Positions 945 through 58,771 of a stretch of 64,000 nucleotides of DNA are shown piece by piece. The translations under genes were made by a program, and so were the position numbers. Below the pieces are notes generated by a model, which ran no database searches, was not told where the DNA came from, and saw only the letters and a list, made by a program, of their open reading frames with translations. This DNA comes from Escherichia phage teqhal: sequence record MN895435.1; one strand, written 5' to 3'. Position 1 is the stretch's first letter, and every line of letters starts with the position of its first letter.

Positions 945-1502
945 ATGTCAGAAACTAAGCCTAAATATAATTACGTAAACAATAAAGAGCTTTTACAAGC
1001 TATTATTGATTGGAAAACAGAATTAGCAAATAATAAAGACCCAAATAAAGTAGTTCGTCAGAATGATACTATCGGATTAGCCATTATGCTTATTGCAGAA
1101 GGCTTATCTAAACGTTTCAACTTTTCAGGATACACCCAGTCTTGGAAACAAGAAATGATTGCAGATGGTATAGAAGCTTCTATTAAGGGGCTTCACAATT
1201 TTGATGAAACGAAATATAAAAACCCGCATGCATATATAACTCAAGCTTGTTTTAATGCATTCGTCCAACGTATTAAAAAAGAACGTAAGGAAGTTGCAAA
1301 GAAATACAGTTACTTCGTTCACAATGTCTATGACAGCCGTGACGACGATATGGTTGCGTTAGTAGATGAAACTTTTATTCAAGACATCTACGATAAAATG
1401 ACGCATTACGAAGAATCAACCTATAGAACACCGGGGGCTGAAAAGAAAAGTGTTGTAGACGATTCTCCTAGTTTGGATTTTTTATATGAGGCTAACGATT
1501 AA
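945..1502 (+). CDS. 55: late-transcription sigma factor gp55
   Basis: 185 aa from ATG 945 (track ORF begins at upstream GTG 939); [23 protein letters not shown] matches remembered T4 gp55; RBS AAGAGGTGAAA. Confidence 0.9.
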
Positions 1503-5097: not shown

Positions 5098-5280
5098 CAT
5101 TAATGATGAATTCATAGCAAACATTGATTATACCGAAGAAGATTCTAGATATGTTGGAATAATTTATATTACATCAAAAACAGCACAAGGCGTTGTTTGC
5201 ATGGCTGAATTTGATGAATACTTTTTAGATTATGATGATATGATAGAATGGTCTAAAAGATACATTAAAAGGAATCTTTT

Positions 5281-6969
5281 GTGAAGAATTTTAAACTAAA
5301 CCGAGTTAGGTATCAAAATATAATGTCAGTAGGTGGAAATCCTATTGACATTCAATTAGATAAGGTTCAAAAAACTCTTATTACTGGACGAAATGGCGGT
5401 GGTAAGTCTACTATGTTAGAAGCCATCACATTTGGGCTTTTTGGCAAGCCATTTCGTGATGTAAAGAAAGGCCAATTAATAAACAGCACAAATAAGAAAG
5501 AACTTTTAGTTGAACTGTGGATGGAATATGATGAGAAAAAGTACTATATCAAAAGAGGACAAAAACCGAACGTTTTTGAAATCACCGTTAACGGTACACG
5601 TCTTAATGAATCTGCCAGCAGTAAAGATTTCCAAGCAGAATTTGAACAGCTTATCGGAATGTCATATGCCAGTTTCAAGCAGATTGTTGTCCTTGGTACA
5701 GCAGGGTATACCCCTTTCATGGGTTTGTCGACCCCTGCGCGAAGAAAGCTTGTGGAAGACCTGCTTGAGGTAGGAACATTAGCTGAAATGGATAAGCTTA
5801 ATAAAGCACTAATACGTGAATTAAATTCACAAAACCAAGTGCTTGACGTTAAAAAAGATAGTATTATCCAACAAATTAAAATATATAATGATAACGTTGA
5901 ACGCCAGAAAAAATTAACGGGTGACAACCTTACTCGTCTGCAAAATATGTATGATGATTTGGCAAAAGAAGCTAGAACGCTAAAATCGGAAATAGAAGAA
6001 GCTAACGAAAGATTAGTTAATATTGTTTTAGATGAAGACCCGACTGATGCATTTAATAAAATCGGTCAAGAAGCAGTTTTAATTAAATCAAAAATTGACT
6101 CGTATAATAAAGTCATTAATATGTATCACGAAGGTGGATTATGTCCAACCTGTTTGTCACAATTGAGTTCCGGTGATAAAGTTGTTTCTAAAATTAAAGA
6201 TAAAGTTTCTGAATGTACGCATTCGTTTGAACAGCTTTCAACACATCGTGATAATTTAAAAGTTCTTGTTGATGAATACCGAGATAATATTAAAACCCAA
6301 CAATCGTTGGCAAATGATATTCGCAATAAAAAGCAATCTCTAATCACGACGGTAGATAAAGCTAAAAAAGTTAAAGCGGCTATAGAAAAAGCATCTTCTG
6401 AGTTTATTGACCATGCTGATGAAATAGCACTGCTTCAAGAAGAACTTGATAAAATTGTTAAGACAAAAACTAATTTAGTAATGGAAAAATACCACCGAGG
6501 AATTTTGACTGATATGCTCAAAGATTCTGGTATTAAAGGTGCTATTATTAAAAAGTACATTCCATTATTTAATAAGCAGATTAACCATTATCTTAAAATA
6601 ATGGAAGCGGATTATGTGTTTACATTAGATGAAGAATTTAATGAGACAATTAAATCCCGTGGTCGCGAAGATTTTAGTTATGCTTCATTCAGTCAAGGTG
6701 AAAAAGCACGAATTGATATTGCTCTTTTATTTACTTGGCGTGATATTGCTGAAAAAGTTTCAGGTGTTAAAATAAGTTGTTTATTTCTTGATGAAGTGTA
6801 TGACGGTGCATTTGATGCTGAAGGTATTAAAAATGTAGCTAAAATTTTAGATGGTTTGAAGGATACCAACTTCTTCATAATTTCGCATAAAGACCATGAC
6901 CCACAAGAATATGGTCAGCATATTCAGATGGAAAAAGTTGGTAGATTTAGTTTAGCTAAGATTAGCTAG
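5281..6969 (+). CDS. 46: recombination/repair ATPase gp46 (Rad50-like)
   Basis: 562 aa, GTG start, Walker A GRNGGGKST, long coiled coil, CPTC zinc hook. Confidence 0.9.
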   Translation: MKNFKLNRVRYQNIMSVGGNPIDIQLDKVQKTLITGRNGGGKSTMLEAITFGLFGKPFRDVKKGQLINSTNKKELLVELWMEYDEKKYYIKRGQKPNVFEITVNGTRLNESASSKDFQAEFEQLIGMSYASFKQIVVLGTAGYTPFMGLSTPARRKLVEDLLEVGTLAEMDKLNKALIRELNSQNQVLDVKKDSIIQQIKIYNDNVERQKKLTGDNLTRLQNMYDDLAKEARTLKSEIEEANERLVNIVLDEDPTDAFNKIGQEAVLIKSKIDSYNKVINMYHEGGLCPTCLSQLSSGDKVVSKIKDKVSECTHSFEQLSTHRDNLKVLVDEYRDNIKTQQSLANDIRNKKQSLITTVDKAKKVKAAIEKASSEFIDHADEIALLQEELDKIVKTKTNLVMEKYHRGILTDMLKDSGIKGAIIKKYIPLFNKQINHYLKIMEADYVFTLDEEFNETIKSRGREDFSYASFSQGEKARIDIALLFTWRDIAEKVSGVKISCLFLDEVYDGAFDAEGIKNVAKILDGLKDTNFFIISHKDHDPQEYGQHIQMEKVGRFSLAKIS

Positions 6970-7678
6970 GTTTATATTTACAGTTATCATTATGCCACCT
7001 TGATAAATTTCCGAAAGTGGTAACTTTACCACAATGGACGCAAGTACCAGTCTTTTCAGTTTTCTTGCGTCCATTTGGATTTTTCTTGCAGAAATTTCTA
7101 TGTGCTGCGATAACGCATTTCTTGCCTATCATTCCGCAGAATTCGCAGGATGTTTCTTCAAGAATGATTGCTTTAAGCCCGTTTGAGATATTATTTCTGT
7201 GTTCTTTAGACATCGGTGGTCTAACTTTAGGATTAGGGTGATTCGGGCAGTTATCAAAATGCCATCGATTCATATTCCCGCTTAATCCAGACTTACCGCA
7301 ATGAGGACAAGTTAGTCTTGCTTTATTAGCTACTGCATCAGACATTTTCTTTCGTGTCTCCTGGGAGAATTCTTTATTCTTTTCTATTTCCCAGAGTTTA
7401 CGACGAATCCAACCGAAAGTTTTATTGTTGCGTTTAGCGTATTTCGTGGAAACTGTCATCATGTTAGCAGCATAGACTAATTTTGGTTCAGAAGGATAAA
7501 TTTTTACTAAAAGTTGATGAGCTACATAGTGCTCTTCTGGTGTTAAATCTACTAAGTTTGAAGCATCATCGCTGCCATTTAAACAGCGTGGTATAATGTG
7601 ATGAGATTCAGTATAGCAATCAAGTTTTCGAGATTTAGCATTAGAGATTAACTTTTCATAAATTAGTTTATAATTCAT
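6962..7678 (-). CDS. HNH homing endonuclease with three C-terminal zinc-finger repeats
   Basis: 238 aa; HNH core ESHHIIPRCLNGSDDASNLVDLTPEEHYVAHQ; three CxxCGK(x10-12)RWHxDNC-like repeats; antisense to flanking genes. Confidence 0.75.
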   Translation of the reverse strand: MNYKLIYEKLISNAKSRKLDCYTESHHIIPRCLNGSDDASNLVDLTPEEHYVAHQLLVKIYPSEPKLVYAANMMTVSTKYAKRNNKTFGWIRRKLWEIEKNKEFSQETRKKMSDAVANKARLTCPHCGKSGLSGNMNRWHFDNCPNHPNPKVRPPMSKEHRNNISNGLKAIILEETSCEFCGMIGKKCVIAAHRNFCKKNPNGRKKTEKTGTCVHCGKVTTFGNLSRWHNDNCKYKPS

Positions 7679-7711
7679 AACATATCCTTTTGATACAGCG
7701 AGTGATAAACA

Positions 7712-7719
7712 TATTTATA
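7712..7719 (-). promoter_or_regulatory. late promoter TATAAATA (minus strand) for the HNH gene
   Basis: plus-strand TATTTATA about 33 nt upstream of the HNH ATG. Confidence 0.55.
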
Positions 7720-7729
7720 CGGAGGAACT

Positions 7730-7921
7730 GTGGCAGAATATTCAACTGGACAGCATCTATTAACTATTCCTGAAATAAAACGATATATTCTGAGAAATAA
7801 TTTTTCTAATGAAGAGCATATAGTTACTGAATCTATGCTTAGGAATGCATTTAAATCAGAATATACAAAAATAATGTCCAATAGAAATGAAGCTTGGACT
7901 GTTACTGATTATTATGACTAA
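7730..7921 (+). CDS. hypothetical protein (45.2-like)
   Basis: 63 aa ORF with GGAGG RBS, at the T4 45.2 position. Confidence 0.5.
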   Translation: MAEYSTGQHLLTIPEIKRYILRNNFSNEEHIVTESMLRNAFKSEYTKIMSNRNEAWTVTDYYD

Positions 7922-7930
7922 AGGTGTATT

Positions 7931-8320
7931 ATGACTAAAATTACTGTGAATTATACTGTTGATGTAAAAGATATTCAGCCAAAACACGTGCGTTCTGAAT
8001 CAAATCCACAAAACCAAAATAAAATTCGTCGAGCATGGGTTTTGTCTCTTTCTGATAACGCAATGGAAGTTATTCAGAACAAAATTAAATCTGCACCTGC
8101 TCGTCATGTGTATTATGAAGCTATCGATCGTGAAGTAAGTAATAAATGGATTGAACTAATGCGCAAACATACTACAGAATCCCTAAACGCCGGTGCTAAA
8201 TTTATTATGACTTCATGTGGTGAACGCCTTGAAGATGAATATTGCGGCAATGCAGATGAACGTCTGATTGTTGCTGCTCAAATTGTTGCCGAAACAATCG
8301 CAGCTGATTTTAATCGTTAA
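7931..8320 (+). CDS. rpbA: RNA polymerase-binding protein RpbA
   Basis: 129 aa, position between 46 and 45, T4 RpbA length. Confidence 0.75.
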
Positions 8321-8346
8321 TTGCTTTATTTAATTAGTTATAAAAT
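8319..8346 (+). promoter_or_regulatory. MotA-dependent middle promoter upstream of gene 45
   Basis: MotA box TTGCTTTA followed about 10 nt later by TATAAA. Confidence 0.5.
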
Positions 8347-8375
8347 TAAATCTCATTTGAATTGAAGGAAATTAC

Positions 8376-9062
8376 ATGAAACTGTCTAAAGATACTACTG
8401 CTCTGCTTAAAAATTTCGCTACTATTAACTCTGGTATTATGCTTAAATCAGGTCAATTTATTATGACTCGCGCAGTTAATGGTACAACTTATGCGGAAGC
8501 AAATATTTCTGACGTTATTGATTTTGATGTAGCAATTTACGATTTGAACGGTTTTCTCGGTATTCTGTCTCTAGTTAATGATGATGCAGAAATTTCCCAG
8601 TCAGAAGATGGAAATATTAAAATTGCTGATGCCCGCTCAACAATTTTTTGGCCAGCAGCCGATCCGAGTACAGTAGTTGCTCCTAATAAACCAATTCCAT
8701 TCCCGGTAGCATCTGTTGTTACCGAAATTAAAGCTGAAGACCTTCAACAGCTGTTGCGTGTATCTCGTGGTCTGCAAATTGATACAATTGCTATCACGGT
8801 AAAAGAAGGTAAAATCGTAATTAACGGTTTTAATAAAGTAGAAGATTCTGCTTTGACACGTGTTAAATATTCTTTGACTCTTGGTGATTATGATGGTGAA
8901 AATACATTTAATTTCATTATCAATATGGCAAATATGAAAATGCAACCAGGAAATTATAAACTTCTGCTTTGGGCAAAAGGTAAACAAGGCGCTGCTAAAT
9001 TTGAAGGTGAACATGCGAATTATGTAGTAGCTCTTGAAGCTGATTCTACCCACGATTTTTAA
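8376..9062 (+). CDS. 45: sliding clamp gp45
   Basis: 228 aa, MKLSKDTTALLKNFATINSGIMLK matches remembered T4 gp45. Confidence 0.95.
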   Translation: MKLSKDTTALLKNFATINSGIMLKSGQFIMTRAVNGTTYAEANISDVIDFDVAIYDLNGFLGILSLVNDDAEISQSEDGNIKIADARSTIFWPAADPSTVVAPNKPIPFPVASVVTEIKAEDLQQLLRVSRGLQIDTIAITVKEGKIVINGFNKVEDSALTRVKYSLTLGDYDGENTFNFIINMANMKMQPGNYKLLLWAKGKQGAAKFEGEHANYVVALEADSTHDF

Positions 9063-34497: not shown

Positions 34498-34869
34498 ATG
34501 TTTAAAATCGGTAAGAAATATTGCATTCGTGAAGGTGAAGAACAGAAATATCTACTTTCTGCTAGTAATAGGAATAGTTCTATTAATGCTGTAATATCTA
34601 CAAGCGAATTTATCGTTGAAGATATGAAAGGTAATAATGTCACAATGATTAGTACAGCATCTGGAAATGATGGAAAAATTCTTCACAGTTTTCAGAGTAA
34701 TGTTCTAATTTATGATGAAGAATTTGACCTATTCGAAGAAGTTACAGAAGATTTTGATTTTGAATGCACTATCACTATGAAATCTGGCGATCCTCTTTCT
34801 TTTACAGTTAAAGATGAAAGAAGCCGCTTGAGAGTTATTAGTCTTCTTCAAGCCATTAAATTTAAGTGA
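34498..34869 (+). CDS. hypothetical protein
   Basis: 123 aa ORF. Confidence 0.45.
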   Translation: MFKIGKKYCIREGEEQKYLLSASNRNSSINAVISTSEFIVEDMKGNNVTMISTASGNDGKILHSFQSNVLIYDEEFDLFEEVTEDFDFECTITMKSGDPLSFTVKDERSRLRVISLLQAIKFK

Positions 34870-35135
34870 AAATTATGAAATATATTAATCGTTCTATCGC
34901 AGCATTAGTATTAGCAGTGTCTTTAGTAGGATGTACTGATGCTGATAATGCAACTAAAGTTTTGTCTTCAAGTGGTTTTACTAATATTGAAATCACTGGA
35001 TATAACTGGTTCGGTTGCTCTGAAAATGATTTCCAACATACTGGATTTCGTGCTATTGGACCTACCGGGCAGAAAGTAGAAGGAACAGTATGTTCTGGGC
35101 TGTTCTTTAAGGATTCAACTATTCGTTTTAAATAA
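34866..35135 (+). CDS. putative lipoprotein
   Basis: 89 aa, signal peptide and lipobox LVGC. Confidence 0.5.
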   Translation: MKIMKYINRSIAALVLAVSLVGCTDADNATKVLSSSGFTNIEITGYNWFGCSENDFQHTGFRAIGPTGQKVEGTVCSGLFFKDSTIRFK

Positions 35136-35158
35136 AAGGCCTTCGGGCCTTTAGCTTT
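35136..35158 (+). terminator. UUCG-loop hairpin AAAGGCCTTCGGGCCTTT
   Basis: palindrome immediately after lipoprotein gene. Confidence 0.55.
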
Positions 35159-35204
35159 ATGATTACCGGAGTATAATATTCCCGAAACCAAACGAGGATA
35201 AGTG

Positions 35205-37022
35205 ATGATTAAGAATGAAATTAAAATTCTGAGCGATATTGAACATATCAAAAAGCGTAGTGGCATGTACATTGGCTCTTCTGCTAATGAAATGCATGAG
35301 CGCTTTCTGTTTGGTAAATGGGAAAGTGTTCAGTATGTACCTGGTCTTGTTAAGCTTATTGATGAAATTATCGATAACTCAGTCGATGAAGGTATTCGTA
35401 CTAAGTTTAAATTCGCGAATAAAATTAATGTTACCATTAAAAATAATCAGGTAACAGTTGAAGATAACGGTCGCGGTATTCCACAAGCGATGGTTAAAAC
35501 ACCTACCGGTGAAGAAATTCCTGGTCCAGTTGCTGCTTGGACTATTCCAAAAGCGGGTGGTAACTTCGGTGATGATAAAGAACGCGTCACTGGCGGTATG
35601 AATGGTGTTGGTTCTAGTTTAACTAACATTTTTTCTGTGATGTTTGTCGGAGAAACTGGCGACGGTCAAAATAATATTGTAGTTCGTTGTTCAAACGGCA
35701 TGGAAAATAAATCATGGGAAGATATTCCTGGAAAATGGAAAGGAACCCGTGTTACTTTCATTCCTGATTTTATGTCATTTGAAACTAATGAGCTGTCCCA
35801 AGTTTATCTTGACATTACACTAGATCGTCTCCAGACACTTGCTGTTGTTTATCCTGATATTCAATTTACCTTTAATGGTAAAAAGGTTCAGGGCAATTTT
35901 AAGAAATATGCACGCCAATATGATGAGCATGCTATTGTTCAAGAACAAGAAAATTGTTCTATTGCGGTTGGTCGTTCACCGGATGGTTTTCGTCAATTAA
36001 CTTATGTGAATAACATCCACACTAAGAATGGTGGCCATCACATTGACTGTGTTATGGATGATATTTGTGAAGACCTTATTCCACAAATCAAACGTAAGTT
36101 CAAAATTGATGTAACTAAAGCACGTGTCAAAGAATGTTTGACTATCGTTATGTTTGTTCGTGATATGAAAAACATGCGATTTGATTCTCAAACTAAAGAG
36201 CGTTTGACTTCTCCATTTGGCGAAATTCGTAGTCATATTCAGCTTGATGCTAAAAAGATTTCACGCGCTATTTTAAACAATGAAGCGATTTTGATGCCAA
36301 TTATTGAAGCTGCGTTGGCTCGTAAATTGGCGGCAGAAAAAGCAGCAGAAACTAAAGCAGCTAAAAAGGCTTCTAAAGCTAAGGTTCATAAACATATCAA
36401 AGCGAATCTTTGTGGTAAAGATGCTGATACTACTCTTTTCTTGACTGAGGGTGATTCGGCTATCGGATATCTTATTGATGTTCGTGATAAAGAACTTCAT
36501 GGTGGTTATCCATTGCGTGGTAAAGTTCTCAACAGTTGGGGTATGTCATATGCTGATATGCTTAAAAACAAAGAACTGTTTGATATTTGCGCAATCACTG
36601 GATTAGTTCTCGGTGAAAAAGCTGAAAACTTGAATTATCATAATATTGCTATTATGACTGATGCTGACCATGATGGTCTAGGAAGCATTTATCCTTCTCT
36701 GCTCGGGTTTTTTAGTAATTGGCCAGAATTGTTTGAGCAAGGACGAATTCGCTTTGTCAAAACTCCTGTAATCATCGCTCAGGTCGGTAAAAAACAAGAA
36801 TGGTTTTATACAGTCGCTGAATATGAGAGTGCTAAAGATGCTCTACCTAAACATAGCATCCGTTATATTAAGGGACTTGGCTCTTTGGAAAAATCTGAAT
36901 ATCGTGAGATGATTCAAAATCCGGTATATGATGTTGTTAAACTTCCTGAGAACTGGAAAGAGCTTTTTGAAATGCTCATGGGAGATAATGCTGACCTTCG
37001 TAAAGAATGGATGAGCCAGTAG
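35205..37022 (+). CDS. 39: topoisomerase II large (ATPase, GyrB-like) subunit gp39, unsplit
   Basis: 605 aa single ORF from ATG 35205; T4 has 39 (516 aa) plus 60 (160 aa) with a translational bypass. Confidence 0.9.
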   Translation: MIKNEIKILSDIEHIKKRSGMYIGSSANEMHERFLFGKWESVQYVPGLVKLIDEIIDNSVDEGIRTKFKFANKINVTIKNNQVTVEDNGRGIPQAMVKTPTGEEIPGPVAAWTIPKAGGNFGDDKERVTGGMNGVGSSLTNIFSVMFVGETGDGQNNIVVRCSNGMENKSWEDIPGKWKGTRVTFIPDFMSFETNELSQVYLDITLDRLQTLAVVYPDIQFTFNGKKVQGNFKKYARQYDEHAIVQEQENCSIAVGRSPDGFRQLTYVNNIHTKNGGHHIDCVMDDICEDLIPQIKRKFKIDVTKARVKECLTIVMFVRDMKNMRFDSQTKERLTSPFGEIRSHIQLDAKKISRAILNNEAILMPIIEAALARKLAAEKAAETKAAKKASKAKVHKHIKANLCGKDADTTLFLTEGDSAIGYLIDVRDKELHGGYPLRGKVLNSWGMSYADMLKNKELFDICAITGLVLGEKAENLNYHNIAIMTDADHDGLGSIYPSLLGFFSNWPELFEQGRIRFVKTPVIIAQVGKKQEWFYTVAEYESAKDALPKHSIRYIKGLGSLEKSEYREMIQNPVYDVVKLPENWKELFEMLMGDNADLRKEWMSQ

Positions 37023-57900: not shown

Positions 57901-58771
57901 ATTTCTCATTATCATCAAACATCAAGAAACCGTCAATCGATGTACGGCCTTCAATGGAATGAGTTCCAACTTCTTGTACTGAAGTCGTTTCATCGTATGT
58001 AGTAACAATTGTATGATAAAGTGGATTCAGTTTATCTAAATCAACGAAATTAATAATATCGCCATGATTAGCAAATCTTGGAAGTTTAACATTAATTGGT
58101 GCAGCAGAAGTAAATCTACGTACGATAAAATCATTTGATTGCGCTTGATAAGTATTCGCTGGTGTTACAACTACAGCTTCTCTACTATAATCAGCAACAT
58201 ACATTTGCCACAGACGATTACTAAAAATTAAAACTAGCTGTGACTTTGGATGAGTCATTAGTACTGAACGTACTTGTTGACCTCTGAAGTTTACAATACT
58301 TTGCACCGGAGCTACAATTAAAACTTGGTTAACTCCAGGTTTTCCTCCAATATCTTGGAGAACGATAGTATCACCATCAATTGGGGTAGATGGTAAAGTA
58401 AATGTAATATCATTACCAGCTGCGGTGTTAACCGAAATAGCTTCACCAGATTTTAATTGATATGAACCAGATGAAACCGTAATCCAGTTAGCATCGGTAC
58501 GTAATGCTCTCCAGCGTCCGCTATTAAAAGCTCCTGCCGGTTTTGGAATATCATTTATAGCAGCCCAAAAGCGGTTATCATAAATGATTACAAAATCTTT
58601 TAAATATCCACGAGTTGGATCGTATTGTTGAACTGTGTTTTCTTGAATTAAGTAATCAACGTTAACACCGTCAGTTCCTACGGTACGATCAGCTAAAGCT
58701 ACGTTGATTATTTTATCACCACCTGCGTCCAGACCGTCTTCTGCTCTGAACTTTCTTTTAATCTCGGCCAT
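54902..58771 (-). CDS. 34: long tail fibre proximal subunit gp34
   Basis: 1289 aa, same length as T4 gp34, internal ATETRRG-type repeats. Confidence 0.9.
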   Translation of the reverse strand: MAEIKRKFRAEDGLDAGGDKIINVALADRTVGTDGVNVDYLIQENTVQQYDPTRGYLKDFVIIYDNRFWAAINDIPKPAGAFNSGRWRALRTDANWITVSSGSYQLKSGEAISVNTAAGNDITFTLPSTPIDGDTIVLQDIGGKPGVNQVLIVAPVQSIVNFRGQQVRSVLMTHPKSQLVLIFSNRLWQMYVADYSREAVVVTPANTYQAQSNDFIVRRFTSAAPINVKLPRFANHGDIINFVDLDKLNPLYHTIVTTYDETTSVQEVGTHSIEGRTSIDGFLMFDDNEKLWRLFDGDSKARLRIITTNSNIRPNEEVMVFGANNGTTQTIELQLPTNISVGDTVKISMNYMRKGQTVKIKAAGEDKIASSVQLLQFPKRSEYPPEAEWVTVQELVFNGETNYVPVLQLAYIEDSDGKYWVVQQNVPTVERVDSLNDSTRARLGVIALATQAQANVDLENSPQKELAITPETLANRTATETRRGIARIATTAQVNQNTTFSFADDLIITPKKLNERTATETRRGVAEIATQQETNAGTDDTTIITPKKLQARQGSESLSGIVTFVSTAGATPASSRELNGTNVYNKNTNNLVVSPKALDQYKATPTQQGAVILAVESEVIAGQSQEGWANAVVTPETLHKKTSTDGRIGLIEIATQSEVNTGTDYTRAVTPKTLNDRRATESLSGIAEIATQVEFDAGVDDTRISTPLKIKTRFNSTDRTSVVALSGLVESGTLWDHYTLNILEANETQRGTLRVATQVEAATGTLDNVLITPKKLLSTKSTESQEGVIKVATQSETVTGASANTAVSPKNLKWIVQSEPTWAATTAVRGFVKTSSGSITFVGNDTVGSTQDLELYEKNSYAISPYELNRVLANYLPLKAKAADSNLLDGLDSSQFIRRDIAQTVNGSLTLTQQTNLSAPLVSSSTATFGGSVSANSTLTISNTGTATRLIFEKGPQTGTNPAQTMTIRVWGNQFSGGSDTTRSTVFEVGDETSNHFYSQRNKAGNITFSINGTVMPINVNASGSLNANGVATFGSSVTANGEFISKSANAFRAINGDYGFFIRNDGGSTYFMLTASGDQTGGFNGLRPLSINNQSGQVTIGESLIIAKGATINSGGLTVNSRIRSQGTKTSDLYTRAPTSDTVGFWSIDINDSATYNQFPGYFKMVEKTNEVTGLPYLERGEEVKSPGTLTQFGNTLDSLYQDWITYPTTPEARTTRWTRTWQKTKNSWSSFVQVFDGGNPPQPSDIGALPSDNATMGNLTIRDFLRIGNVRIIPDPVNKTVKFEWVE

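Follow-up and report, generated by a model that had tools for sequence, protein, structure and literature searches.

A free-standing HNH endonuclease gene, probably a homing endonuclease gene, lying antisense between genes 46 and 45.2 of a T4-like phage

T-even phages are rich in homing endonuclease genes. Within a block of plus-strand genes, the Tequatrovirus genome of Escherichia phage teqhal (MN895435.1), of which a stretch of 64,000 nt was analysed (the window), carries an open reading frame that runs in the opposite direction, and this raises the question of what kind of gene it is and what it does at this site. With a probability of roughly 85%, it belongs to the T4 Mob / I-TevIII HNH family as a free-standing homing endonuclease gene (HEG). 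The kind of gene is a known one: a mob-like homing endonuclease is already annotated in RB32 and in dozens of related phages. The features of the locus are collected in Table 1.

Table 1. Features at the 46/45.2 junction (window coordinates)
Feature	Position	Strand	Basis or remark
Gene 46	5281..6969	+	stop overlaps stop of the minus-strand HEG
HEG-linked haplotype of gene 46 3' end	6778..6961	+	allele comparison, association scan
Non-homologous insert	6950..7720		771 nt in place of 58 nt; alignments with T4, T2, KMB22
Homing endonuclease CDS (probable)	6962..7678	-	ORF, PHROG 655, near-identity to FL08 and RB32 genes
Predicted zinc finger 3, aa 213-233, CX2CX12HX3C	6980..7042	-	regex, conservation, I-TevIII alignment
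Predicted zinc finger 2, aa 178-197, CX2CX11HX3C, degenerate copy	7088..7147	-	regex, model, I-TevIII alignment
Predicted zinc finger 1, aa 124-144, CX2CX12HX3C	7247..7309	-	regex, BLASTP, model
Putative HNH catalytic core, aa 24-54 (E24, H26, H27, N41, H50, H54)	7517..7609	-	conservation, alignment, model
Shine-Dalgarno AAGGA	7685..7689	-	6 nt ahead of ATG, read from sequence
T4 late-promoter motif TATAAATA	7712..7719	-	33 nt between motif and ATG at 7678
Right junction, 45.2 start rewritten	7728..7735	+	T4 AAACATGG versus window CTGTGGCA
Gene 45.2	7730..7921	+	GTG start; next plus-strand gene after HEG
rpbA	7931..8320	+	follows 45.2

The minus-strand frame begins with ATG and encodes 238 aa plus a stop codon, which overlaps the stop of gene 46 by 8 nt (6962..6969), just as an earlier note on this DNA had reported. 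The same note placed the gene between 46 and rpbA; the site is more exactly the 46/45.2 junction, with 45.2 preceding rpbA. It had also singled out this frame as the only sizeable antisense gene of its surroundings, and indeed no other antisense ORF of at least 100 aa in the plus-strand block is supported as a gene: those that lie outside annotated plus-strand genes have no PHROG match, and the remaining ones lie inside plus-strand genes. The HEG product, in contrast, matches PHROG 655 ("homing endonuclease") at 1e-68, is identical (100%) to the 'homing endonuclease' of FL08 and has 2299 homologues at E <= 1e-5. The gene is intact and under purifying selection, with a dN/dS of 0.08-0.21, and an AF2 model of the 238-aa protein has a mean pLDDT of 89. 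The genome is AT-rich and has further minus-strand shadow ORFs longer than 100 aa, so that the frame might be taken for a mis-annotation or a chance antisense ORF. This reading is effectively refuted already and keeps next to no probability, given the large family, a dN/dS well below 1, the confident structure model and a Shine-Dalgarno sequence and promoter motif of the gene's own; the other minus-strand ORFs tested had no family support. No paralogue of the HEG was found within the window by tblastn, and no intron or other RNA family is matched in Rfam at E <= 1 between 6000 and 8600.

The N-terminus of the product is, by its sequence, a Mob-type HNH nuclease domain, with the core string SHHIIPRCLNGSDDASNLVDLTPEEHYVAHQ at aa 25-55. 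Over its first 115 residues the product shares 43% identity with T4 MobE (BLASTP, E 2e-29), and the six core residues given in Table 1 are invariant in 25 homologues and conserved in alignment with both MobE and the active I-TevIII of RB3. Four of them (H26, H27, N41 and H50) align with H26, H27, N39 and H48 of I-TevIII, the residues that were mutated as catalytic (PMC1865063). Thus, the HNH identity proposed earlier is borne out, and the alignments reveal no loss of catalytic residues. The AF2 model forms a beta-beta-alpha core (strand 24-27, strand 42-45, helix 47-60), and a profile of the family aligns to the HNH motif of McrA (6ghc, E 7.6e-4). Pfam HNH (PF01844) scores only 16.9 bits on the product, under its cut-off of 21.4, because the HNH is of the divergent Mob type; close homologues are also sub-threshold.

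The C-terminal region contains three zinc modules: CPHCGKSGLSGNMNRWHFDNC (C124-C144), CEFCGMIGKKCVIAAHRNFC (C178-C197) and CVHCGKVTTFGNLSRWHNDNC (C213-C233). A description of these as three copies of CxxCGK...RWHxDNC fits modules 1 and 3 and fails for module 2, which is degenerate; its X11 spacing is one residue short of the CX2CX12-13HX3C pattern, whereas fingers 1 and 3 have X12. In I-TevIII, fingers of this pattern hold one zinc each and are needed for DNA binding, as seen with a PAR assay and Cys-to-Ala mutants (PMC1865063). Finger 1 is 50% identical to an I-TevIII finger over 28 aa (BLASTP), and fingers 2 and 3 share 37-38% identity with the I-TevIII pair (37%, E 8e-8, for aa 174-236 against I-TevIII 207-266), such that finger 2 aligns with the I-TevIII finger at C211/C214 and finger 3 with the one at C242/C245. 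Finger 3 is the finger retained across nearly the whole family, and its C213, C216, H229 and C233 are invariant in the 25 homologues. In the AF2 model all three are hairpin-plus-helix structures with a pLDDT of 85-95 (for finger 1, beta-hairpin 121-132 and helix 133-143). PHROGs 12324 and 27406 match aa 165-235. A search for a dedicated Pfam or NCBIfam model of the finger returned only sub-threshold zinc-ribbon noise. A NUMOD3 motif (PF07460) at aa 103-115 reaches 12.6 bits, under the threshold of 20.4; more distant family members pass this threshold, and their repeats occupy the positions of fingers 1 and 2. Zinc and DNA binding by the three fingers of the HEG product is predicted from the fold in this model. 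An HNH domain joined to a C-terminal zinc finger is a described Mob-class architecture (PMC10448857), and to call this tail "unusual", as the earlier note did, is an overstatement: the finger is the known I-TevIII one, only the copy number of three differs, and among the homologues compared this count is a variant common to the whole subclade.

The nearest characterized systems share some of these properties and differ in others. As with the Mob family (MobA-E), the HEG is free-standing between conserved genes and is present in some T-even phages and absent from others; as with MobE, the C-terminal DNA-binding part is variable. MobE nicks a conserved gene next to its own in a strand-specific manner, drives co-conversion and is inherited at high frequency (PMC2790892). 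However, mobE lies at nrdA/nrdB, where it is promoterless, co-oriented with its neighbours and provided with an internal terminator (PMC2790892), while the HEG, at 46/45.2, is antisense to its neighbours and has its own late-promoter motif and no predicted terminator. In addition, neither T4 MobE (141 aa as annotated) nor RB3 MobE has the CCHC fingers of the HEG product. I-TevIII of RB3 has the same order of N-terminal HNH and C-terminal CX2CX12-13HX3C fingers, but its gene lies inside the nrdB group I intron, it has two fingers rather than three, the region between the HNH and the fingers is unrelated, and overall identity is 24%. I-TevIII cuts as a dimer, leaving a 2-nt 3' overhang (PMC1865063). 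SegF/gene 56 and SegG/gene 32 are parallels for a neighbouring conserved gene as the target, hit at a distance, which for the HEG is an inferred one; these enzymes carry out intronless homing, with co-conversion of the flank between cleavage site and HEG and with immunity through flank polymorphisms (PMC2988022, PMC2993671). Unlike the HEG product, SegF and SegG are GIY-YIG enzymes with mapped cleavage sites. RB32ORF054w and its copies are materially the same gene at the same site.

The presence of TATAAATA upstream of the ATG had suggested that the gene has its own late promoter. The motif is not over-represented in the 64 kb (5 copies versus 10.2 expected); however, all five copies precede an ORF start on the correct strand by 23-83 nt, and thus it is position rather than count that carries the signal. 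Furthermore, TATAAATA or nTAAATA is found 27-44 nt before the ATG in 7/7 homologous loci from several genera, whose proteins share only 42-63% identity. The assignment of the motif as a late (gp55/gp33/gp45-dependent) promoter is supported by this conservation, in agreement with the earlier proposal. Other signals known from related genes were sought with negative results. A hairpin sequestering the ribosome binding site, as in mobE and I-TevI, is not indicated, since folds of the predicted late leader and of a longer upstream RNA are no more stable than shuffles (z -0.54 and -0.02). Comparison of the promoter/leader with the empty T4 site for an I-TevI-style operator gives a score of 17 against a shuffle mean of 17.1. 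No intrinsic terminator is predicted in or after the HEG between 6500 and 8400.

The gene is polymorphic among close relatives, as expected of the free-standing insertion that had been proposed. It is found in 58 phage records, which cover 46 phage names, at 97-100% nucleotide identity, annotated as a homing endonuclease, while ~440 Tequatrovirus records have an empty 46/45.2 junction. These include T4 and T2, whose junctions are cleanly empty, so that the gene is far from universal among T-even phages; T4 has only a 55-nt spacer here. RB32ORF054w is 98.9% identical at the nucleotide level and is described in its record as a 'putative site-specific intron-like DNA endonuclease, similar to mobB'. 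Copies are also found at the same site in RB33, RB51, RB68, FL08, slur07 and others; in RB51 and RB68 a variant 3' end gives a product of 237 aa and a 4-nt overlap with gene 46. A scan of IMG/VR using RpbA gave just 6 loci, all of them HEG-. Every three-finger homologue examined (42-63% identity) is convergent with gene 46 and divergent from 45.2. Thus, as judged from these loci, the three-finger subclade is at 46/45.2, antisense and with a late-promoter-like motif, in all members examined across several T4-like genera.

Comparison of occupied and empty sites defines what came with the gene. The 58 nt of T4 and T2 that the insert replaces comprise the last 4 codons and stop of gene 46 and most of the 55-nt spacer, and a MotA-box/TATAAT element upstream of 45.2 in these phages is removed. 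At the right junction the GGAGGAA ribosome site of 45.2 is retained (7721-7727), and CTGTGGCA provides the GTG start together with one extra Ala codon. To the left, the HEG-linked tract of gene 46, which encodes the Walker B segment LFLDEVYDG, an ISHKDHD segment and an altered C-terminus (...RFSLAKIS), is only 62-88% identical to T4-type and T2-type alleles, compared with 97-100% upstream. Left of the HEG, 29 positions are perfectly associated with it, all in 6778-6964 and none in 5319-6777; on the right, associated positions fall within 7705-7735, with none over the following 1350 nt. Outside this linked tract HEG+ and HEG- genomes are undifferentiated, with mean distances in the left flank of 0.016 within HEG+, 0.019 within HEG- and 0.019 between the two, and in the right flank of 0.025, 0.017 and 0.020, respectively. 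The same pattern is seen in Slopekvirus, in which gene 46 of phT4A matches that of the empty PhiK2046 perfectly and diverges over just the last ~85 nt.

The private ~190-nt gene 46 haplotype of the carriers is, in sequence terms, a signature of co-conversion or immunity. Such a signature places the target probably at the gene 46 3' end or at the 46/45.2 junction. KMB22, however, is HEG-less yet has the HEG-type haplotype up to ~6921; given this recombinant, most of the linked tract may be dispensable for immunity and may be donor DNA that hitch-hiked along. Even between the HEG-less phages T4 and T2, gene 46 is hypervariable at its 3' end (81% identity versus 94% upstream). A donor lineage for the tract was looked for in MHG19, phT4A, EC-F1 and three metagenomic HEG+ loci, and none of these is closer to it than the T4 and T2 alleles.

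These observations suggest the following scheme for a genuine and probably active HEG. The gene would be transcribed late, in the antisense direction relative to the early 47-46-45.2-rpbA-45 unit, from a gp55-type TATAAATA promoter of its own. Its product would bind a long target through a C-terminal array of two NUMOD3-like helices and three CCHC beta-beta-alpha zinc fingers, allowing the HNH domain to nick or cut the HEG-less allele of a co-infecting relative, presumably at or near the gene 46 3' end or the 46/45.2 junction. By analogy, the enzyme could leave a nick, like MobE, or break both strands as a dimer, like I-TevIII. Recombination-dependent repair of the lesion would then copy the HEG into the recipient along with ~190 nt of the donor gene 46 3' end and the rewritten 45.2 start, and through these co-copied flanks the carrier would in addition gain immunity to the enzyme it encodes.

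A different history would be that of a domesticated or stranded HEG, which is inherited vertically, repeatedly lost and no longer homing, and is retained since the phage has come to depend on it, perhaps for regulatory signals for 45.2/rpbA or for a DNA-binding or repressor role. A single site and orientation held across several genera would also fit an old residence, and purifying selection would fit any functional protein. Moreover, HEGs are known to be retained more readily when they contain promoters of the host (PMC2988022); here, the insertion took away the MotA-box/TATAAT element of T4 and T2, and a MotA-box-like element lies within the HEG on the plus strand (7169-7194). As a middle promoter, however, this element was rejected, since it is not conserved in diverged homologues. 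In addition, the catalytic residues are all intact, the empty sites of T4 and T2 contain no HEG remnant, and HEG copies that are 97-100% identical amid mosaic, undifferentiated flanks speak for a recent horizontal spread and against deep vertical descent in Tequatrovirus. Domestication is consequently improbable. Still less probable is that the enzyme serves mainly in competition or exclusion between phages, either damaging the essential gene 46 region of co-infecting relatives with no efficient self-propagation or acting on some other target. HEGs can indeed serve interference competition of co-infecting phages (PMC11620839), and the adjoining gene 46 encodes a Rad50-like recombination nuclease subunit; nevertheless, a co-converted flank linked to the HEG and clean alleles with and without the gene are the exact residue of gene conversion, and exclusion and homing are not mutually exclusive.

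Homing thus remains the preferred account. An extension of it, which we regard as unlikely, is that the three-finger Mob/I-TevIII clade would be a long-term, site-dedicated resident of 46/45.2 in several Straboviridae genera, whose modular fingers read the sequence coding for the conserved C-terminus of gp46, a Rad50-like protein that is itself needed to process the breaks on which homing depends, and whose insertion rewires the neighbouring genes. The rewiring would consist of deletion of the middle-promoter-like element upstream of 45.2/rpbA and of a late antisense transcript into gene 46; carriage of the HEG would then alter expression of RpbA, gp45.2 or gp46 and would not be neutral.

In the literature searched, there is no paper mentioning or characterising this particular HEG, and none that is informative on 'T4_ev240' as a possible experimental HEG acquisition; the mob-like genes of RB32 were tallied in a 2010 review (PMC2993671). 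The locus is best regarded as an ordinary selfish gene of a T4-like phage, inserted backwards between 46 and 45.2, and as one more documented HEG that borders a divergent block of sequence within an essential gene. Its modest practical value lies in an apparently active HNH enzyme for which two genera offer natural near-isogenic HEG+/HEG- pairs. KMB22, as a natural recombinant that splits the linked flank, could help to locate the target, and differences in the number of I-TevIII-type fingers offer a way to study how these set the length of the target on glucosyl-HMC DNA.

Judged by homology and by its population signature, the antisense gene at the 46/45.2 junction (HEG, for homing endonuclease gene) is a free-standing homing endonuclease gene. 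This interpretation, offered in an earlier note on this DNA, is essentially right; the feature itself is an ordinary one, belonging to the Mob/I-TevIII HNH family. The open reading frame lies where the note had placed it, the quoted HNH string corresponds to aa 25-55 of the protein, and both the late-promoter motif about 33 nt upstream and the overlap of the HEG 3' end with the gene 46 stop are present. The right-hand neighbor, given there as rpbA, is instead 45.2. No paper on HEG itself was found in the literature searched. What is added here is a three-finger subclade dedicated to this junction and a linked unit of ~960 bp, and the natural alleles found would allow the target to be mapped.

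Coordinates of HEG, its neighbors and associated elements (window positions unless marked as locus coordinates)
Feature	Position	Strand	Remark
gene 46	5281..6969	+	stop codon overlaps HEG stop by 8 nt
HEG	6962..7678	-	238 aa, ATG start
AAGGA ribosome site	6 nt before HEG ATG	-	sequence
leader pattern TATC-N8-9-(T/C)ATCAAA	7689-7707	-	just after late-promoter motif
late-promoter motif TATAAATA	7719..7712	-	33 nt from motif to HEG ATG
all TATAAATA copies	7712, 24035, 53739, 58806, 61046		upstream of same-strand ORF starts
45.2 ribosome site GGAGGAA	7721-7727	+	kept despite insertion
45.2	7730..7921		adjoins HEG
rpbA	7931..8320		
Matisse HNH gene	locus 995-1477		same direction as gene 46
PhiK2046 empty junction	locus 992		

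The window belongs to Tequatrovirus. Its closest record, Escherichia phage FL08 (99.3% identity over 6400-8400), labels HEG "homing endonuclease", and similar labels are found in RB33, RB51, RB68, slur07, teqhad, Ozark and others. HEG is of an already known kind, appearing in the RB32 record as a mob-like endonuclease (RB32ORF054w); a 2010 review tallies the mob-like genes of RB32 (PMC2993671). In all, 58 records hold the gene at 97-100% nucleotide identity, or 46 phage names once RefSeq/GenBank duplicates are merged. T4 has no gene at the junction, which consists of a 55-nt spacer between gene 46 and 45.2; the T2 spacer is identical, and in ~440 other Tequatrovirus records a single unbroken match covers the T4 junction. 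Universal presence with no empty sites, which the earlier note had named as fatal to its interpretation, is therefore not what is observed.

Over its N-terminal 115 residues the HEG protein shares 43% identity with T4 MobE (E 2e-29). Across 25 aligned homologues E24, H26, H27, P30, G35, N41, H50 and H54 are invariant, and H26, H27, N41 and H50 share columns with H26, H27, N39 and H48 of the active RB3 I-TevIII, the residues mutated as catalytic in that enzyme (PMC1865063). In a family-profile comparison this segment aligns with the McrA HNH motif (6ghc, E 7.6e-4); the Pfam HNH model scores 16.9 bits, below its threshold of 21.4. Selection is also maintaining the protein, with dN/dS values of 0.08-0.11 among Tequatrovirus copies and ~0.2 against homologues of 56-60% identity (values for more distant pairs are saturated).

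Three Cys-Cys-His-Cys modules follow, as the earlier note had described, but the middle one, CEFCGMIGKKCVIAAHRNFC (aa 178-197), is degenerate and departs from the proposed CxxCGK...RWHxDNC repeat. The spacing is CX2CX12HX3C in fingers 1 and 3 (aa 124-144 and 213-233) and CX2CX11HX3C in finger 2, a motif equivalent to the CX2CX12-13HX3C of I-TevIII, in which DNA binding depends on two such fingers, with one zinc bound by each (PMC1865063). Fingers 2 and 3 share 37% identity with the I-TevIII finger pair (E 8e-8) and also align to the fingers that remain in T4 I-TevIII, a truncated protein; neither Pfam nor NCBIfam has a curated model for the CCHC finger. Of the family's 120 best representatives (90% clusters), 86 have one finger (the C-terminal one), 25 have three, seven have two and two have none, while more distant relatives carry NUMOD3 repeats where fingers 1 and 2 stand. 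The Mob class has been described as combining an HNH domain with a C-terminal zinc finger (PMC10448857), so that the three-finger form, the variant of one subclade within a modular design, is no new architecture.

All three-finger homologues examined occupy the 46/45.2 junction and converge on gene 46, in most cases overlapping its stop or touching it. They are the genes of Yersinia phage MHG19 (63% identity), Enterobacter phage EC-F1 (43%), the Slopekvirus Escherichia phage phT4A (42%) and three metagenomic contigs (60%, 56% and 47%). Three forms of the junction occur within Slopekvirus: with the Mob-like gene, empty, as in PhiK2046, where 45.2 starts directly at the end of gene 46, or with a different HNH gene, as in Klebsiella phage Matisse, whose unrelated 160-aa product is encoded co-directionally with gene 46. 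This makes the 46/45.2 junction a hot spot at which homing endonuclease genes insert. In T2 and SYGD1 a mob-like or homing endonuclease gene lies directly upstream of gene 46 (locus coordinates 1-200 and 1-566, respectively), so that both ends of gene 46 serve as insertion sites, in different phages. At ~5200-5290, upstream of gene 46, the window has 46.1/46.2-like ORFs, and its identity to T2 falls to 0.40.

In the window, 771 nt (6950-7720) stand in place of 58 nt of T4/T2, comprising the final four gene 46 codons with their stop and most of the spacer. As a result, the gp46 C-terminus reads ...RFSLAKIS rather than ...RFTVMV. At the start of 45.2, AAAC-ATG-G has become CT-GTG-GCA, so that the gene begins with GTG and is one codon longer. 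The insertion also removes a spacer element that T4 and T2 have ahead of 45.2. It consists of TATGCTTTA and, 11 nt further on, TATAAT, and by its sequence would fit the MotA-dependent middle-promoter consensus. A TGCTTTA-N13-TATTAT match inside HEG (7169-7194, +) could substitute for it; this match shows no conservation in diverged homologues.

Comparison of six HEG+ with eight HEG- Tequatrovirus loci reveals how far the linkage extends. On the left, 29 positions separate the groups perfectly, all within 6778-6964, with none in the 1459 nt further upstream; on the right such positions span 7705-7735 and are absent from the 1350 nt beyond. The HEG+ haplotype shares only 62-88% identity with the T4-type and T2-type alleles over 6730-6900, versus 97-100% in the rest of gene 46. 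Outside the linked tract the groups are undifferentiated: mean distances within HEG+, within HEG- and between them are 0.016, 0.019 and 0.019 on the left (5420-6770), and 0.025, 0.017 and 0.020 on the right (7745-9045). Thus, the traveling unit is ~6778-7735 (~960 bp), in freely recombining backgrounds. The near-isogenic phT4A and PhiK2046 repeat this one-sided pattern. Differences cluster in the last ~85 nt of gene 46, which is otherwise identical in the two phages, and to the right of the insert they are confined to the first ~12 nt of the 45.2 homologue.

Two segments of the Rad50/SbcC-like gp46 are encoded in the linked tract, Walker B (LFLDEVYDG versus LILDEVFDG/S) and ISHKDHD; no donor lineage for the tract could be identified. 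The tract may partly be hitch-hiking donor DNA rather than immunity determinants, given two observations. Phage vB-Eco-KMB22 (OR539217.1), without HEG, has the HEG-type gene 46 haplotype up to ~6921, then the T4-type last 45 nt of gene 46 and an empty spacer (locus ~1895-2320, corresponding to window 6600-6969); this natural allele, a product of recombination or loss, divides the tract in two. In addition, the 3' end of gene 46 is hypervariable even among HEG-less phages, with at least three haplotypes in Tequatrovirus; T4 and T2 are 81% identical over its last ~200 nt (6730-6969) and 94% over the preceding 300 nt.

In the mechanism we propose, HEG would be made late, from its own promoter, and would bind a long target through the finger array. 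Its HNH domain would then nick or cut the HEG-less allele in a mixed infection, and recombinational repair would copy HEG together with the stretch between lesion and gene. The one-sided linkage suggests that the lesion falls either at the junction or toward gene 46; SegF, SegG and MobE act likewise (PMC2988022, PMC2790892). The lesion may be a nick, as with MobE, or a double-strand break made by a dimer, as with I-TevIII.

The late-promoter motif is depleted in the window (5 copies versus 10.2 expected). Each of the five is followed, 23-83 nt downstream, by an ORF start on its own strand; two of these ORFs are large minus-strand ones starting at 58771 and 53715. At all seven three-finger loci, TATAAATA or nTAAATA lies 27-44 nt before the ATG. 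A leader pattern, TATC-N8-9-YATCAAA, is common to six of the seven, whose proteins are only 42-63% identical, and could mark a transcription start region or a binding site. Searches at HEG found no hairpin sequestering its ribosome site, no terminator, no operator-like similarity between its promoter and the empty site, and no intron or other RNA family; the window holds no HEG paralogue.

The claim that HEG is the only sizeable antisense gene in the plus-strand block holds, because the remaining minus-strand ORFs of at least 100 aa lie inside plus-strand genes or have no PHROG match. A 136-aa ORF (34862-35272, -) filling most of a 333-nt gap between plus-strand ORFs matches no PHROG family and is probably a shadow ORF. 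At 35202-37022 (+) stands a single 606-aa ORF. The T4 topoisomerase gene is split into genes 39 and 60 with mobA in between; that of teqhal, judged from ORF length only, appears to be the uninterrupted T2-like form.
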